Below are positions 1,821 to 34,345 of a stretch of DNA of 64,000 nt, piece after piece. How positions within the stretch are numbered: the first letter of the stretch is position 1; every line of letters starts with the position of its first letter. This stretch comes from Bacteroidota bacterium. Lineage in GTDB: Bacteria > Bacteroidota > Bacteroidia > 2-12-FULL-35-15. The stretch is taken from contig JAZKBF010000010.1 of NCBI GenBank assembly GCA_040388745.1, positions 56,339-120,338 on the forward strand, read 5' to 3'. Both the position numbers and the translations under genes were made by a program. The notes below the pieces were generated by a model. It worked only from the letters and a program-made list of their open reading frames with translations, searched no databases and was not told the origin of the DNA.

Positions 1821-4800
1821 TTAATACTCTTCTTTTAATTTCGTATGTAGTAAAGGATAACTTTTGTTAAGTGTGTTTTTAATAAAAACAAACTTTTCAA
1901 GTGATGATTCATTCATTTCTTTATTTGAAGCATTTTTTTCAATAAAACTCAAATGTGGAGAAAGGATCGATAAACCAACTACTGACATTGATGATTTTAG
2001 TTTATGTGATAAACTTTTTACATGAAAAGCATCTGAACTTTTAAAAGCAGCATCCAAGGCAGTAACATCTATAGGAACTTGATTTAAGAATAGTTCTATC
2101 ATCTCTTTTTCAAATTCTTTATTGCCATCAGAAAGTTCCTTTAAATAATTCAGATCAATTAGGTCTGAATCCTTATTTGAATCGCCTCTCTCAATAATTT
2201 TAAGGGGTACAGAGGAATCTAATTTTTTCTCAATTAAATTGGAGCTGATTTTGTTATAAAGGTCGTCCTGTGTAAAAGGTTTTCCTACATAATCATTCAT
2301 TCCAATTTCAATACATTTTTCTTTTTCACCAACCAGTGAATGTGCTGTCATTGCAACAATTGGGATTGTAAATTTCAACTCCTTTCTGATAGCTATAGTT
2401 GTCTGGTAGCCATCCATTTCAGGCATTTGCAAGTCCATTAGTACGAGATCAAATTTTCCCTGTTTTAATTTTTCCAGACCTATTTTTCCATTTTCAGCAA
2501 TTTCAAAATCAAAGCCAAATTTCGTAAGTATTTTTCCTGCTAATCGTTGGTTCAACACATTATCCTCGCATAATAATATTTTTACTGATCCAAGGTTTTT
2601 CTTTACAACAACAGCTTTTTGTAAAGGTTCTAAAACTGATTTGTCAACTTTTTCGTAACGAATTTCGAATGAAAATTCAGAACCTTTTCCAAGCTCACTG
2701 TTTAATTTTATTTCTCCTCCTAGCAATTCCACCAAATTTTTTGCAATACTTAAACCTAAGCCGGTTCCACCAAATTTTCTTGTAGTTTCAGTATTTGCCT
2801 GGGAGAATCTGTCAAAAATTAATTCCGTTTTGTCAGCAGGAATTCCTATTCCTGTGTCCTGAACAATAAATTTCAATTTATAACTGAAATCATCTTCTTC
2901 GGTTTTTTTTACGGATACAGTTATACTTCCCTCTTCAGTAAATTTAATCGCATTCCCAATCAAATTTACCATGATCTGATTTAATCTTACGCTATCCCCA
3001 ACAACGAAATCGGGAAGGGAGGCATCAAGGAAAAAATTGTATTCAAGATTTTTTTCTTTGGCTTTAACATTTAACAGATTATAAATATTTTTCAAGGAAT
3101 CCTTCAAACTAAATGGAGCACTTTCAATTGCAATTTTCCCGGATTCAATTTTTGAAAAATCAAGAATGTCATTTATTATTGAAAGCAAATTGCTTCCTGC
3201 AAGTTTAACTGAACTCACGCATTCCTTTTGATTTTCGTCCAAAGTGCTTTGGGCAAGTAATTCAGTAAATCCAATAATGGCATTCATTGGAGTGCGAATT
3301 TCATGGCTCATATTGGCAAGGAAACTGTTTTTGGCAATAACTGATTGCTCTGCCCTCTCTCTGGCATTTATGATTTCCGCTTTGGCTTTTTTACTTTCGC
3401 TGATATCTTTTGCTATTCCTAAATAACCAACGATTTCGTTTTTTGAACTCTTAAGTGTTGAAATAGATAATTCAACTGGAATTCTCAAGCCATCTTTACG
3501 AATATAGGTCCATTCATTCACATCACTTGAATTTCCCAAGCGTGATTTAATATGAAAAACATCAACCCCTGGTTCTACTTTTTGTTTTAATTCCTTTGTT
3601 AATACTTCAGCCCTTGCCAGAACTTCCATTTTATCATGGATTATTTCCGGGGTATTTCCGATCATTTCTTCCGCTTTATATCCAAGCATTTTTTCCGCAC
3701 CTTTATTAAAGGTCAGAATAATTCCATCCGGTTCAGAAGTAGAAATAATAGAATAATCTGTTCCATCAAGTATAACATTTTGAAATTCAGCTAATCTGCC
3801 AATTTCTTCCTCCATTTTTTTGCGGTCATCTATGTTATTAATTGAGGAGAGAATAAAAGAATTGCCATTAATTTCAATGATTTCCAGAGAGATAAGAACC
3901 CAAAATTTTCCCCCGTTTTTTTTTGTCATCATTCCTTCTTTGGACCTGGCGTTATTTTGGTTCTTCAATAAGGTTACTATTTTTTCACGTTCATCAGGGG
4001 GCACTATATTTAACTCAACGGATGTTTTTCCAATTACTTCTTCTTTTGTAAAACCAAAAACTTCAAGAAAAGTTTCATTCACATATTCTATTTTTCCTGT
4101 TTTTAAATTTGATATAGCCATAATTACAGGGTTTTTATCAAATACTTTAAAAAAGCGACTATTGCTTTCTTTTAATTCCTTTTCTAATGAAATCCGTTCT
4201 GTTATGTCAACCGCAGTTCCAATTACAAATTTACTACCATCATCTCGGTCTGAAATTACATTATTATACATCCAGGTTTTCAAGGTTCCATTTTTGTGAA
4301 TAATTTTCATTAATCCCTTAGAGGAGCCTGATTTTTCAATTTCATCTAAATAACCCTGAAGCAAATTTTTTGCTTCAATTGGTACAAGGTCAAATAAATT
4401 TTTCTGTAATATTTCTTCAACAGAATACCCTATTGAAGAGGCTCCGGCACGATTGATGGAAAAGAAATTACCTTTTAGATCATGCGTACACATCAATCCT
4501 TGTGAATTTTCGAAAAAAACTCTGTGCTTTTTTTCACTTGATAATAGGGCCTGTTCGCCTTTTATTCTATCTGAATCATTCCTACCAATTGCAAAAAGTT
4601 CTCCTGATACTTCATCAGGATTAGCAACCCAGCTTATTGTCAGGTAATCGCCATTTTTTGTTATAAACCGATTTTCGAAGCCTATCGTTTTTTCTCCTGT
4701 TCCCAATTTTTCAATTTCATTTACAGTGTCGCTGATATCATCAGGATGAATGAAATCAAAAAACGGTTTTGTAAGCAGCTCTTCTGTTGTCCAACCTAAA

Positions 4801-13712: not shown

Positions 13713-13852
13713 AAGTCAAAAGTTAAAAGAGAAAGAAGTCAAAAAACAAATTTCTATCCATATAAAACCGGCAAGCAATTCAAATTTACAAAATTGGTAT
13801 AAGAATTGCCTCCTTATTTTCATTTTGAATTTTGACTTTAAACTTTTGACTT
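13711..13852. repeat. Heptamer-repeat hairpin element (AAAAGTC / GACTTTT units)
   Basis: Left arm AAAAGTCAAAAGTTAAAAG...; right arm TTTTGAATTTTGACTTTAAACTTTTGACTT. Confidence 0.65.
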
Positions 13853-13869
13853 AATTTTTATAAAGCCTC

Positions 13870-14505
13870 ATGGCAAAAAGAATTTTCATATTTATTTTTC
13901 TGTTACCTCTTTTTAGTTCGGCACAAAATGGTGCCCCTCCTACCATAGCCACATCAGCGAAGGTATCACAGGGACTTCAACTGCCCGAAAAAGCTATTGT
14001 TGTTCGTGCTGTTGTTTACAATGGTGAAACAATACCGTACGTTACCCTATCTCCCCTTGTATGCTATGTACCACGTGTTTTTAAAAATAAAAGAGAAAAG
14101 GCAAAATGGGACAGGTTGAAATACAATGTTAAAAAAGTGTATCCATACGCCATTTTAGCTTCCGCTAAACTCAAAGAATACGATAAGCTTTTGGCAAAGA
14201 TCCCTAATGAGAATGAGCGAAAAAGGTATATGAAGCTTGCTGAAAATCAGCTAAAAGACGAATTTGGTAAGGAGTTGAAAAATTTATCCATGTCGCAGGG
14301 CCGAATTTTAATTAAGCTCGTTGACCGCGAAACAGGCAAAACTACGTATGATATAGTAAAAGATATGCGTGGCTCATTTTCTGCCTTTATGTGGCAAGGG
14401 GTGGCTGTATTGTTCAGCTCTAACCTCAAAGATGATTATGATGCCAAAGGGGAAGATAAAGCCATTGAAGAGGCTATTAAATTAATTGAGAGTGGGGATT
14501 TTTAA
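13870..14505 (+). CDS. DUF4294 family protein
   Basis: Signal peptide; LKYNVKKVYPYA and QGRILIKLVDRETG motifs typical of this Bacteroidota family. Confidence 0.8.
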   Translation: MAKRIFIFIFLLPLFSSAQNGAPPTIATSAKVSQGLQLPEKAIVVRAVVYNGETIPYVTLSPLVCYVPRVFKNKREKAKWDRLKYNVKKVYPYAILASAKLKEYDKLLAKIPNENERKRYMKLAENQLKDEFGKELKNLSMSQGRILIKLVDRETGKTTYDIVKDMRGSFSAFMWQGVAVLFSSNLKDDYDAKGEDKAIEEAIKLIESGDF

Positions 14506-14612
14506 AATTGCTACAAATTACGTTCTCCTAAAGCAGTTCGGAGGGAAACGAATATTCGAAAGTGCGTTTAGATTATTGTTAGCACCAATTTTAGAATGAC
14601 ACCAATAAAACA

Positions 14613-14852
14613 ATGGAAAGAACTAGAATTACAAAAGACAATATCCAGAATTGGCCAAAGTTTGAATCGTTACTAAATGATGGAAAGATAAAGTTCGACT
14701 CAACTGGACGACTCAGATATATACACGGTGCACCTGTTGGCGACTTAATTCAAACAAGGACAGAAAAAAAAGGGCAACCAATCTTTCAAGAAAGTTCAGA
14801 AGAATGGTTTGACCCAGAAAGTCAAAAAGCAAAAGAGTTTGTTTGGAAATAG
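14613..14852 (+). CDS. Hypothetical protein (cassette ORF1)
   Basis: 79 aa ORF, overlaps ORF2 by 10 nt. Confidence 0.6.
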   Translation: MERTRITKDNIQNWPKFESLLNDGKIKFDSTGRLRYIHGAPVGDLIQTRTEKKGQPIFQESSEEWFDPESQKAKEFVWK

Positions 14853-15208
14853 AACTTTATAATATGAGACAAGACTTTGATTTTTTTAAAACGAATATGC
14901 CTGAAAGTAGAAAAGCGGACTTTTATTTAGGATGTCTTGACGGTTCAGTATTTCTTGACTTCAACTACTCAAATGAAAATCTAATTTATCTACGCAGAAT
15001 TTCCTTCGATGGATATGGGTGCTGTAATATAGACAACACCATCATTTGCTTGGATTACAAATTATCAAAAGACTTCATAGAAGAAATCAGTAACGACAAC
15101 CTAAACCAAGAAAAAATGACAAAAATTGTGTTAGAGCTGATTAGACTAAATAAGGACAACATTTGGACAGACGCACTTGAAGAGTATGAATTAATTGATA
15201 AAGAATAA
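14843..15208 (+). CDS. Hypothetical protein (cassette ORF2)
   Basis: 121 aa from TTG (or ATG at 14864); ISFDGYGCC motif. Confidence 0.7.
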   Translation: MEIELYNMRQDFDFFKTNMPESRKADFYLGCLDGSVFLDFNYSNENLIYLRRISFDGYGCCNIDNTIICLDYKLSKDFIEEISNDNLNQEKMTKIVLELIRLNKDNIWTDALEEYELIDKE

Positions 15209-15310
15209 CAAACTGGTGCTAAAACTTGGAGCTTTGTGCTTCTATTCAAGTTCAGTTCTGATTGACAGTTTTGTGCTCCGAAACCCGCCCGAACACGAAG
15301 CCCGAAAACG

Positions 15311-16225
15311 CTAAATTGCTAAACCGCTATATTGTTTTTTCTTAAACCTTTCAGCAATTACCAGATCTTTTGAACCTGCGGTATACGTATAAAATCCTTG
15401 TCCGGATTTAGCTCCTAATTGACCAGCCATTACCATATTTACCAATAAAGGACATGGTGCATATTTAGGATTTCCGTAGCCATCCTGCAATACCCTTAGA
15501 ATAGATAAACAAACATCTAAACCAATAAAATCAGCCAATTGCAATGGTCCCATCGGGTGAGCCATACCTAATTTCATAACGGTATCAATTTCTTCAACAC
15601 CGGCAGTACCTTCATGAAGCGTAATAATGGCTTCATTGATCATTGGCATTAATATTTTGTTGGCAACAAATCCCGGGTAATCATTTACTTCAACCGGAGT
15701 TTTACCTAATTTTTTTGATGTTTCCATAACCAGATTGGTTACTGCATCGGAAGTAGAATAACCACGGATCACCTCCACTAATTTCATTACCGGAACAGGA
15801 TTCATAAAATGCATTCCAATTACTTTATCAGGACGCTTTGTAACAGCTCCAATTTTGGTAATAGAGATAGAGGAGGTATTACTTGCTAATATGGTATTTG
15901 GGGAGCAAATTTTGTCCAATTCCCGGAAAATATTTAATTTGATCTCTACATTTTCAGTTGCTGCTTCTACCACAAGATCTACATTTTTTACACCATCGGC
16001 CATTACCGTATAAGTAGTAATATTTTTTAGTGTTTCGGCCTTTTCCGCTTCTGTAATAACACCTTTTGTAACAATACGGTCCAGATTTTTAGAAATAGTG
16101 GCTATTGCTTTTTCCAAAGCTGGTTGCGAAATATCAATAAGTGCTACATTGTAACCTTGTTGTGCAAATGTGTGAGCAATTCCATTACCCATTGTTCCTG
16201 AACCGATTACTGCAATGTTTTTCAT
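15311..16225 (-). CDS. hbd: 3-hydroxybutyryl-CoA dehydrogenase
   Basis: GSGTMGNG NAD-binding motif, EAATE, SNTSS, GMHFMNP, PMGPL. Confidence 0.93.
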   Translation of the reverse strand: MKNIAVIGSGTMGNGIAHTFAQQGYNVALIDISQPALEKAIATISKNLDRIVTKGVITEAEKAETLKNITTYTVMADGVKNVDLVVEAATENVEIKLNIFRELDKICSPNTILASNTSSISITKIGAVTKRPDKVIGMHFMNPVPVMKLVEVIRGYSTSDAVTNLVMETSKKLGKTPVEVNDYPGFVANKILMPMINEAIITLHEGTAGVEEIDTVMKLGMAHPMGPLQLADFIGLDVCLSILRVLQDGYGNPKYAPCPLLVNMVMAGQLGAKSGQGFYTYTAGSKDLVIAERFKKKQYSGLAI

Positions 16226-20126: not shown

Positions 20127-20332
20127 AAAAGATTTAGAGAATTATAGAAATAAGGAAATGGAGAATTAAGGAAATGGAGAATTAGAGATTTGGAGAGTTT
20201 TAAATTAGAGAATTTTAAATTCTAAATTCAAATAATTAATGCAACAATCCACCAAATCACCAAATCACTAATTCTCCATTTCCCTTATTTCTATAATTCT
20301 CCAACTCTCTAAATCAACAAATCTCCATTTCC
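20127..20332. repeat. Heptamer-repeat hairpin element (GAGAATT / AATTCTC units)
   Basis: Perfect 19-bp inverted repeat GAGAATTATAGAAATAAGG (20137-20155) / 20283-20301 within longer imperfect arms. Confidence 0.8.
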
Positions 20333-26553: not shown

Positions 26554-26626
26554 CAGAAATTATATAAGTTAAAATACATTATAATGTTTACAACGAAATT
26601 TTTGGTTAAAATGCTTACCCACAATT

Positions 26627-26680
26627 TTCTCGACAAGCTCGAAATGACCATGCGCATGGTCATTTCGAGCTTGTCGAGAA
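26627..26680. repeat. Perfect 54-bp palindrome (REP-like)
   Basis: TTCTCGACAAGCTCGAAATGACCATGC followed directly by its exact reverse complement. Confidence 0.9.
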
Positions 26681-26769
26681 TTGCGGCAGATTACCTTAAC
26701 GGTTTAACCTATATAAAGTCTAATGATTATACTCCTTTCTATGTGGTTAAATAAATTGTTGTGCTAGTA

Positions 26770-34214: not shown

Positions 34215-34345
34215 TTACAACGAATTACGAATTTTAACGAATTTCTGGTTACAAATAATCGAATGTTTACGAATTTACGAATCTGTAGGTTTAAACAGTT
34301 TCAAACACAGATTCGTAAATTCGTTTTTTATTCGTTATCCGTAAC
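34215..34345. repeat. Heptamer-repeat hairpin element (ACGAATT units)
   Basis: Perfect 17-bp inverted repeat CGAATTTACGAATCTGT (34270-34286) / 34307-34323. Confidence 0.75.

Follow-up and report, generated by a model that had tools for sequence, protein, structure and literature searches.

The 64,000-nucleotide stretch of DNA considered here (the window) belongs to the genome of an uncultured member of the Bacteroidota (G000, a draft assembly of 96 contigs with a completeness estimate of 100%), and at its positions 14579-15310 a 732-bp segment lies between two conserved genes, one encoding a DUF4294 protein and the other, hbd, a 3-hydroxyacyl-CoA dehydrogenase. An earlier note, made from the sequence alone, had taken this segment for an integron-like cassette without an integrase that had entered a secondary site and was then fixed by partial deletion of its attC recombination site. 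We put at about 85% the probability that positions 14579-15310 are one integron-type gene cassette captured outside any array. The features of the locus, including two open reading frames (ORFs), are as follows.

13870-14505, + strand: DUF4294 gene (PF14127, E 1.5e-53), the upstream core neighbour, in the same orientation as the cassette genes
14506-14578, + strand: native DUF4294-hbd spacer and left half of the target site, homologous to the spacers of genomes G002 and G060; its final base is the crossover G14578
14579-15310, + strand: inserted cassette (probable), 732 bp, missing from 30 syntenic loci, with flanks contiguous in G060 and related cassettes in an Ignavibacteria array and in contig L116
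14579-14594, + strand: cassette start TTAGCACCAATTTTAG, its TT... being part of a split R' box; the same start occurs in other cassettes, and it pairs with R'' at 15210-15222
14613-14852, + strand: ORF1, 79 aa, with motifs GRLRYxHGAP and EEWFDPESxKAKEFxW; 114 homologues at 51-88% identity
14864-15208, + strand: ORF2, 114 aa, starting at ATG 14864 (alternative TTG 14843), with an FDGYGCC motif; 550 homologues
15210-15222, + strand: R'' box and extension, AAACTGGTGCTAA, corresponding to AAAACTGGTGCTAAC in the intact copies L093, L098 and G003
15222-15223, + strand: deletion junction, where 32 nt are gone (CACGGGCTTTGCGTCAGGCGGGTTGACGTGCA in L093, the 5' arm of the hairpin); its placement is ambiguous by 1-2 A
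15223-15283, + strand: conserved centre of the attC family, matched by covariance model (CM) and hidden Markov model (HMM), 84% identical to a copy on contig C40 of the same genome
15284-15310, + strand: 3' arm CCCGCCCGAACACGAAGCCCG followed by AAAACG, in the register of the family consensus ...AAAnCG|TTA; G15310 is the last cassette base and the G of R'
15311-16225, - strand: hbd (PF02737 and PF00725); its stop codon at 15311-15313 is the first triplet in the right half of the target site

The gene order accC-DUF4294 followed by convergent hbd is kept across the genus, within which hbd and accC share 85-98% amino-acid identity, and ORF1 and ORF2 are found at none of the 30 syntenic loci of relatives in the genus. 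With the flanks of the insert joined and compared with 68 genus genomes, an unbroken match came from G060, at 81% over 320 nt. Its empty site reads ...CTTCTG|TTAAATTGCTAAATTG (CTG|TTAAATTGCTAA), with TTA as the hbd stop (TAA on the other strand), and CTGTTAAATTGCTAA is the target site of this G060 type; G017 reads ACTATTG|TTAAATTGCTA at the junction. Because the sites of G060 and G017 are uninterrupted, the cassette appears to have entered at a G|TT just outside hbd, where GTTAAAT fits GTTRRRY, in keeping with the secondary-site insertion proposed earlier. Alignment to the attC family and to intact copies places the crossovers at G14578|T14579 and G15310|C15311, exactly the G|TT-to-G boundaries that the note had predicted. 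The left junction reads ATTATTG|TTAGCACC and the right AAAACG|CTAAATTGC, with DUF4294 and hbd both intact. As in integron cassettes, the insert begins with TT(RRRY) after a G (G14578|TTAGCACC) and ends at the G of R' (AAAACG15310|), the last base of a G+C-richer tail downstream of ORF2 that lies flush with the hbd stop (CTA at 15311-15313 on the + strand, TAG on the - strand).

Copies of the cassette and its cargo

The whole unit recurs elsewhere as a cassette. From G|TT to the end of attC it is 81.8% identical, over 721 aligned nucleotides, to a copy in the Ignavibacteria locus L093; that copy is intact, and the outstanding difference of the window from it is a 32-nt gap. ORF1, ORF2 and attC form the eighth attC-bounded cassette after a recombinase gene in the Ignavibacteria loci L100 and L093, and the ORF pair is one array cassette in three Ignavibacteria assemblies. 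The contig L116 from the ENA is 87% identical to the window at the nucleotide level from G14578 to A15222 exactly, and in the metagenomic contig L098 unrelated genes enclose a lone cassette that combines an ORF2 homologue with a full-length attC. The cassette start TTAGCACCAATTTTAG is found unchanged after an attC in G003 (L087), G058 (L089) and L116.

Both ORFs that the earlier note recognised are real, but the overlap it described between them probably is not: homologues of ORF2 are mostly 114 aa long, which makes ATG 14864 a more likely start than TTG 14843. Identities among the homologues of the two proteins are mostly 65-90%, the weakest ORF1 matches being at 51%, and the 120 best of the 550 ORF2 homologues are 69-90% identical; ORF2 is present in a single copy in the genome of the window. 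The hosts include Flavobacterium, Paracnuella, Sphingobacterium, Ignavibacteria and one metagenome-assembled genome of the Helicobacteraceae. In the pair it is ORF2 that stays constant, and the partner upstream of it varies, with sizes of 79 aa, 86-99 aa and 171-191 aa. In L096 (5414-5989) a 191-aa HExxH protein (LLHEIGHHHD) stands ahead of the ORF2 homologue; it has in common with ORF1 no more than the last ~20 residues (AEEWFDPESPKSNEFIW; C-terminal EEWFDPESxKxxEFIW), a tail that may be the part in contact with ORF2. Taken together, we infer that ORF1 and ORF2 are a conserved, horizontally mobile gene pair. Neither has a match in Pfam, NCBIfam or PADLOC, and their AlphaFold2 models, which are confident (pLDDT 92.3 for ORF2 and 79.7 for ORF1), gave no fold match in the PDB. 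That they are a toxin/antitoxin-like or effector/immunity-like pair is a guess that we hold with low confidence; the hints come from context, namely the two-gene arrangement and the changing upstream partners of ORF2.

A sigma-70 promoter and terminator scan, which is poorly suited to Bacteroidota, predicted nothing between DUF4294 and ORF1, and the motif TAnnTTTG is absent from 14401-14620. Since no terminator is predicted between them, transcription of ORF1 and ORF2 by read-through from DUF4294 is plausible and indeed probable as a prediction of their expression.

The attC family and its crippled member

The earlier note had pointed to a short inverted repeat, and its coordinates and the G preceding it prove exact: TTAGCACCA stands at 14579-14587, directly after G14578, and its reverse complement TGGTGCTAA at 15214-15222. 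The repeat grows to 13 nt with 92% complementarity (TTAGCACCAATTT at 14579-14591 against AAACTGGTGCTAA at 15210-15222). It is one of 43 inverted pairs within 1.6 kb, and in 13800-15400 there are 19 exact inverted pairs of 9-mers separated by up to 1 kb, as against 10.8 +/- 4.4 in shuffled sequence; an inverted repeat of 9-13 nt is by itself not significant. It gains its meaning from its position, since the cassette's first bases pair with R'' in the attC that the same cassette carries.

This position can be understood from the family to which the downstream repeat belongs. A BLAST search of the window's genome with that repeat gave one clear second copy, on contig C40, and with this fuller copy as the query matches were obtained in 47 of 61 genus genomes, often as same-strand series with a spacing of 0.3-3.5 kb. 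Members of the family are structured, ~143-155 nt long, with a stem that covaries, and lie behind small genes in same-strand arrays. When 28 copies are aligned, the layout is yATAAC (R''), long stem, conserved centre, returning stem and AAAnCG|TTA (R'). Of the 23 stem pairs that RNAalifold assigns, 12 show compensatory changes, as where GCACCTACAAGAAATTGGCGG/TCGCCAACTTCTTGTAGCTGC gives way to GGCGTTTGGCAAAAAAGCGG/CCGCTTCTTCGCCAAGCGCC. The consensus stem has 23 columns per side with symmetric mismatches, the one asymmetry being 1 nt versus 4 nt between R box and stem. Of 301 genomes sampled from the phylum, 121 proved to contain the family when searched with a CM built from this alignment, as did 72 of 144 genera. 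The note's statement that the repeat follows small cassette-like genes in Bacteroidota is borne out by these same-strand arrays. Neither of the two findings that the note had named as contrary to its reading was made: copies after small ORFs are many, and the ORFs, far from being syntenic core genes of relatives, are missing from the 30 syntenic loci. Rfam offered no meaningful family for the window locus or the C40 copy at E <= 5, and Flavo-1, considered as the identity of the repeat, was rejected by the Rfam search.

In arrays from G045, G003, G002, G058 and the window's genome, the extension of R'' is complementary to the tail of the previous site at 7.2 of 10 positions beyond AAC/GTT, as against 3.9 of 10 for the tail of its own site and 4.0 for random pairs (Wilcoxon p = 2e-4, n = 23). 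If cassettes are circles that recombine at G|TT of R', then R'' and the opening bases of the same cassette, which come after G|TT of the previous site, would stem from a single R' box and should pair; the window cassette follows the rule with the 13 nt of G|TTAGCACCAATTT and AAACTGGTGCTAA. The family HMM finds clusters of two to four same-strand attC copies in the window's genome, at C40:95275-98769, C75:43096-46939, C39:42-1604, C4:406876-408636, C18:859-1581 and C8:97609-98534. On contig C40 a 152-aa SRPBCC-like gene lies between two attC copies.

The attC of the window itself is damaged. Its CM match (model R1) spans 15216-15281 with 37.6 bits and E 1.3e-8 and covers model positions 39-102 only, while the family HMM matches 15226-15313 with 48 bits at model positions 47-134 only; both partial matches agree with the earlier observation that the pairing arm of the downstream repeat is missing. 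In a three-way alignment and in one with G003, the 32-nt gap relative to the intact copy falls directly after GGTGCTAA and removes the whole 5' arm of the hairpin, so that the sequence expected to pair with CCCGCCCG...GCCCG is absent. The partial attC deletion that the note had postulated is visible here as the 32 nt missing relative to the intact Ignavibacteria copy. The bottom strand of the window's site folds with -10.6 kcal/mol (z +0.27) and no long stem, compared with -19.7 to -25.1 kcal/mol for intact copies. The imperfect hairpin characteristic of an attC (R''-L''...L'-R') into which intact family members fold is lacking from the window copy, which is a crippled member of the family rather than a functional site. 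Since its bottom strand cannot fold the hairpin and the genome lacks a cognate recombinase, we consider the cassette to be immobilised.

Across the 64-kb window a single CM match has an E-value below 1e-3. Weak full-length CM matches at 34251-34338, 26613-26690 and 20150-20298 (E 0.003-0.02) were rejected as attC sites; they are plain hairpins of another intergenic family of short tandem units. The note's suggestion that 14506-14577 is a second eroded att site finds no support: the segment has no HMM or CM match, and its homology to the spacers of G002 and G060 marks 14506-14578 as native spacer. Likewise, 14506-14615 as a repeat or att remnant was discarded: it has no other copy in the genome and no HMM or CM match, and its weak hairpin (z -1.6) is formed by AAAATTG/CAATTTT.

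It could be argued that there is no cassette at all, but a chance inverted repeat together with a dispersed element, resembling either a terminator or a repetitive extragenic palindrome (REP) or miniature inverted-repeat transposable element (MITE), after two lineage-specific genes. The 9-nt inverted repeat is indeed not above chance when taken alone, the window holds other, unrelated hairpin families with weak CM matches such as 34251-34338, and a 9-nt direct repeat, AAATTGCTA, occurs on both sides of the insert (14505 and 15313). That direct repeat was dismissed as a target-site duplication, being offset from the junctions and composed of native spacer units of the TAAATTG type, which are repeated in the empty site of G060 too. 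The features of a MITE or insertion sequence are also lacking, in that the insert has no terminal inverted repeats, one half of its repeat being at the start and the other ~90 nt short of the end. Against the chance view there stand in addition the recurrence of the whole 732-bp unit in a recombinase-headed Ignavibacteria array, the family-wide rule of complementarity between R'' and cassette start, the precision of the empty site and the lack of any Rfam match; we consider it very improbable indeed.

The copies of the cassette also differ from one another. They keep the cargo and R'' (...GGTGCTAAC) and then continue into four unrelated attC cores, one of which is common to the window, L093 and L098, with three others in L116, L114 and L096 (regions compared: L116:715-940; L114:5980-6100; L096:6340-6480; window 15210-15310). 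The 32-nt deletion of the window begins at this same point, exactly at R''. Because cargo and R'' are kept while the cores differ, recombination at R'' as well as at R' is suggested.

Recombinases at the head of the arrays

In the Ignavibacteria locus L100 a gene for a 362-aa recombinase is followed, after ~100 nt, by G|TTGGGCGTA, which is complementary to R'' of the first attC, and then by eight cassettes; all eight end in a full-length attC of the family, and one of them is ORF1 plus ORF2. The same layout of recombinase, attI and cassette is found in G003. In both relatives the start of the first cassette can be located through its complementarity to R'' of the first attC, so that an attI-like site exists, with a G|TT junction ~100 nt after the recombinase stop. 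In the attI-like spacer of L100 (9179-9298) the short direct repeat GAGACCTATA occurs twice, and that of G003 (L091, reverse complement, 4657-4768) has repeats of the GTATAC type; such repeats recall the integrase-binding direct repeats of attI1.

The L100 protein is 38% identical over its full length to a protein of G002. Recombinase genes upstream of family copies and co-oriented with them, on the same contig and within ~10 kb, were found in G045, G058, G004, G070, G071, G062 and G057, the last four having been added by a search with the G003 protein. In eight genus genomes the best match per genome to the integrase model TIGR02249 scores ~81-121 bits per piece, below the cut-off of 265 bits, and in six of the eight it shares a contig with family copies within ~10 kb. 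The array recombinases of G002 and L100 reach 190-210 bits against the same cut-off, leaving model positions ~182-237 unmatched, and the cut-off was reached in none of the nine genomes tested. The array recombinases score just under the cut-off of NF040815 (XerA/integron integrase).

The alignments indicate where these proteins part from integron integrases. Against VchIntIA (2a3v) the G002 and L100 recombinases align in two pieces that skip residues 203-247 of the chain, whereas the alignment to XerA (5hxy) has no gap, from which we conclude that the array recombinases lack the I2 region; they carry an extra N-terminal segment of ~90-130 aa. The I2 helix has been named as specific to integrases (PMC4792948). 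One point of the note calls for correction: with no IntI-specific I2 insertion in the array recombinase of the relatives, the system does not qualify as a canonical integron.

At the G002 locus (L090, L088; C32:159996-180000) the recombinase lies on the opposite strand to the attC series, with ~6 kb of other genes between them, and a local inversion or rearrangement is likely. No synteny of this locus with the genome of the window was found.

The genome of the window has no recombinase of the array type. Its best TIGR02249 matches, at 76.6 and 62.6 bits, are at the level of Xer proteins, a tblastn search for the array recombinase gave at most 32% identity, and no recombinase match at E <= 1e-45 was obtained, compared with 34 of 61 genus genomes that have one. 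This agrees with the absence of an integrase that the note had reported. Because the assembly is a draft from an uncultured organism, absence is likely rather than certain.

Alternatively, the cassette may have been inserted in another strain or species and have arrived by homologous recombination through the accC-DUF4294 and hbd flanks, in which case no integron-type recombinase need ever have been active in the lineage of the window. The high conservation of these flanks (85-98% amino-acid identity for hbd and accC) would favour such an exchange, as would the lack of a recombinase and the presence of different inserts in the same spacer in different species. However, the attC clusters on C40, C75, C39, C4, C18 and C8 suggest cassette recombination in this lineage or its recent ancestors, and among the 68 genus genomes there is no donor with the cassette at this site. 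We regard this route as improbable, and it would alter the place of insertion, not the identity of the element.

History of the insertion and relation to known systems

A history that we favour starts from a circular cassette composed of ORF1, ORF2 and an attC of ~143 nt. The G|TT of its R' would have recombined with a genomic G|TT overlapping the hbd stop, which in relatives reads ...YTG|TTAAATTGCTAA. The enzyme would have been a tyrosine recombinase of the type that heads the arrays, Xer/IntI-like, without I2 and with an extra N-terminal domain, and may have worked in trans or have been encoded by the genome and since lost. A later deletion of 32 nt took the 5' arm of attC right beside the R'' box and left the cassette stranded.

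Several observations weigh against this reading of the element or of its history. The base after the crossover is C in the window (G|CT) and T in the empty sites; it may be either a later substitution or the mark of a different ancestral site, and it turns the hbd stop from TAA into TAG and changes nothing else. The cassette start of L093, TTAGCGGTCATTG, is not complementary to its own R'' and is an exception to the rule. The link between the recombinases and the attC family rests on adjacency and sequence logic. A recombinase gene could be missed in a 96-contig draft of an uncultured organism, even though the completeness estimate is 100%, and the promoter and terminator scan is ill suited to this phylum. 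Finally, the closest relative, the sister species G002, has a different insert with the same junctions, and the history may for this reason be one of replacement and not of first insertion.

The insert of G002, whose flanks have 90-98% amino-acid identity to those of the window, is ~790 bp long, encodes a 145-aa ORF and has junctions identical to the window's (TTATTG|TTAGCGGCAATTTTAG ... AAATCG|CTAAATTGCTAA). Its start is cassette-like, but neither HMM nor CM finds a family attC in it. One explanation is that the site received its first cassette in the ancestor shared by G000 and G002. The present cassette would then have entered at the left hybrid junction and the older one would have been removed by attC x attC excision, in which case the window would not preserve a primary insertion of its present cassette into the secondary site. 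The two genomes share both junctions to the base (TTATTG|TTAGC..., ...CG|CTAAATTGCTAA) as well as the C where the empty sites of G060 and G017 have T, their cargo is unrelated despite these common junctions, and the G002 insert begins with a typical cassette start, TTAGCGGCAATTTTAG, which is also present in the array of G002 itself. On the other hand, without a recognisable family attC the cassette nature of the G002 insert is unproven, the G|TT, which fits GTTRRRY (GTTAAAT), could have been struck twice as a recurrent hot spot, and in the genus this spacer in any case draws unrelated insertions as a general hot spot. We view replacement as a genuine possibility, though one that falls short of an even chance.

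Across the genus the DUF4294-hbd spacer can be as short as ~105 bp or exceed 1.2 kb, and its contents are unrelated; on account of these varying lengths and contents we regard it as a general insertion hot spot. In L023 (G017:C110) it holds an insert of ~1.1 kb with a reverse-strand ORF and, on either side, a direct duplication of ~60 bp made up of the 3' end of DUF4294 and the start of the spacer, that is, a different insertion mechanism in the same spacer. In L104 (G061:C13) there is a ~2 kb block that includes a second, partial copy of the 3' end of hbd and also encodes a small secreted-looking protein. In other genus genomes (L034, L036, L038 and L044) the spacer contains small genes with the common C-terminal motif PNIFSPNNDG.NDxIDF...WDG.DLKGNDC.EGVYYY, followed by hairpin terminators, as befits a general hot spot for accessory genes; the motif resembles a C-terminal domain of the gliding or type IX secretion system type.

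Returning to the reading of the window's insert as a captured cassette, its closest counterpart among known processes is the formation of single attC sites lacking an integrase (SALINs) through attG or secondary sites, for which the consensus of IntI1 is GWT (bioRxiv 10.1101/2022.09.11.507474). In both cases an isolated cassette with a single attC, and with no integrase or other att site nearby, lies at a G|(T/W)T triplet in ordinary DNA between housekeeping genes, with precise junctions and an empty site in relatives. The window differs in that its attC comes from a Bacteroidota-wide family whose array recombinase lacks I2, in that the 5' arm has since been lost, and in that a sister species carries a different insert at the same site. 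The event is of the SALIN/attG type, a known process, in a non-canonical integron-like system.

Sedentary chromosomal integrons with an inverted integrase, as in groups of Treponema and Chlorobi, have the integrase co-oriented with the cassettes. The arrays of the relatives resemble them in this arrangement of recombinase, attI-like site ~100 nt past its stop and co-oriented promoterless cassettes, every one of which has at its end a structured attC that carries R''(..AAC) and R'(G|TT..) boxes. As with sites of the Vibrio cholerae repeat (VCR) type, the attC sequences of the family are highly similar, and the cargo in the relatives (GNAT, MerB, VbhA/Fic, methyltransferases, SRPBCC) is likewise of a familiar kind. 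Unlike those integrons, the relatives' recombinase lacks I2, has an N-terminal extension of ~90-130 aa and falls below the cut-offs of TIGR02249 and NF040815, and the stem of attC is almost symmetric, extrahelical bases not being obvious in it. The recombinase-less clusters of two to four attC sites in the window's genome are similar to the clusters of attC sites that have no integrase (CALINs) of the system described in 2016 (PMC4889954), whereas the element of the window is no cluster but one cassette in a spacer between core genes. An integron-like system without I2 is apparently undescribed: our literature search found the work on SALIN/attG and on I2 and no I2-less cassette arrays of Bacteroidota, within a coverage that is incomplete and no proof of absence.

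A more far-reaching proposal is that a second class of integron, without I2 and widespread in the Bacteroidota, Ignavibacteria among them, captured the cassette outside an array and left it as a natural footprint; in this class both R boxes may be crossovers, and 'gene plus R boxes' and 'hairpin core' would reassort separately. Such reassortment of gene and hairpin modules is not predicted by the canonical single-crossover model with strict strand selection. Drawn from sequence comparison as it is, this proposal is tentative, and we think it rather unlikely to hold in full.

Insertion at G|WT outside arrays (attG, SALIN) has been shown only recently, for IntI1 and related integrases, and the window offers a clean natural example with both junctions, an empty site, an intact copy in another bacterial class and the mutation that locked the cassette in place. 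As a set of substrates the locus offers attC in an intact and a truncated form, together with a natural target in the genome. IntegronFinder 2.0 reported just one complete integron in Bacteroidetes proper, and surveys call the Bacteroidota almost devoid of integrons; in this phylum the attC family is present in ~40% of the sampled genomes. The I2 segment has been regarded as an integrase-specific adaptation to folded single-stranded sites, and the array recombinase lacks it; if it is this recombinase that does the job, gene capture of the integron type would not need I2. If true, the cassette traffic between Bacteroidia and Ignavibacteria to which the 82% nucleotide identity points would be an under-counted form of gene flow in environmental Bacteroidota.

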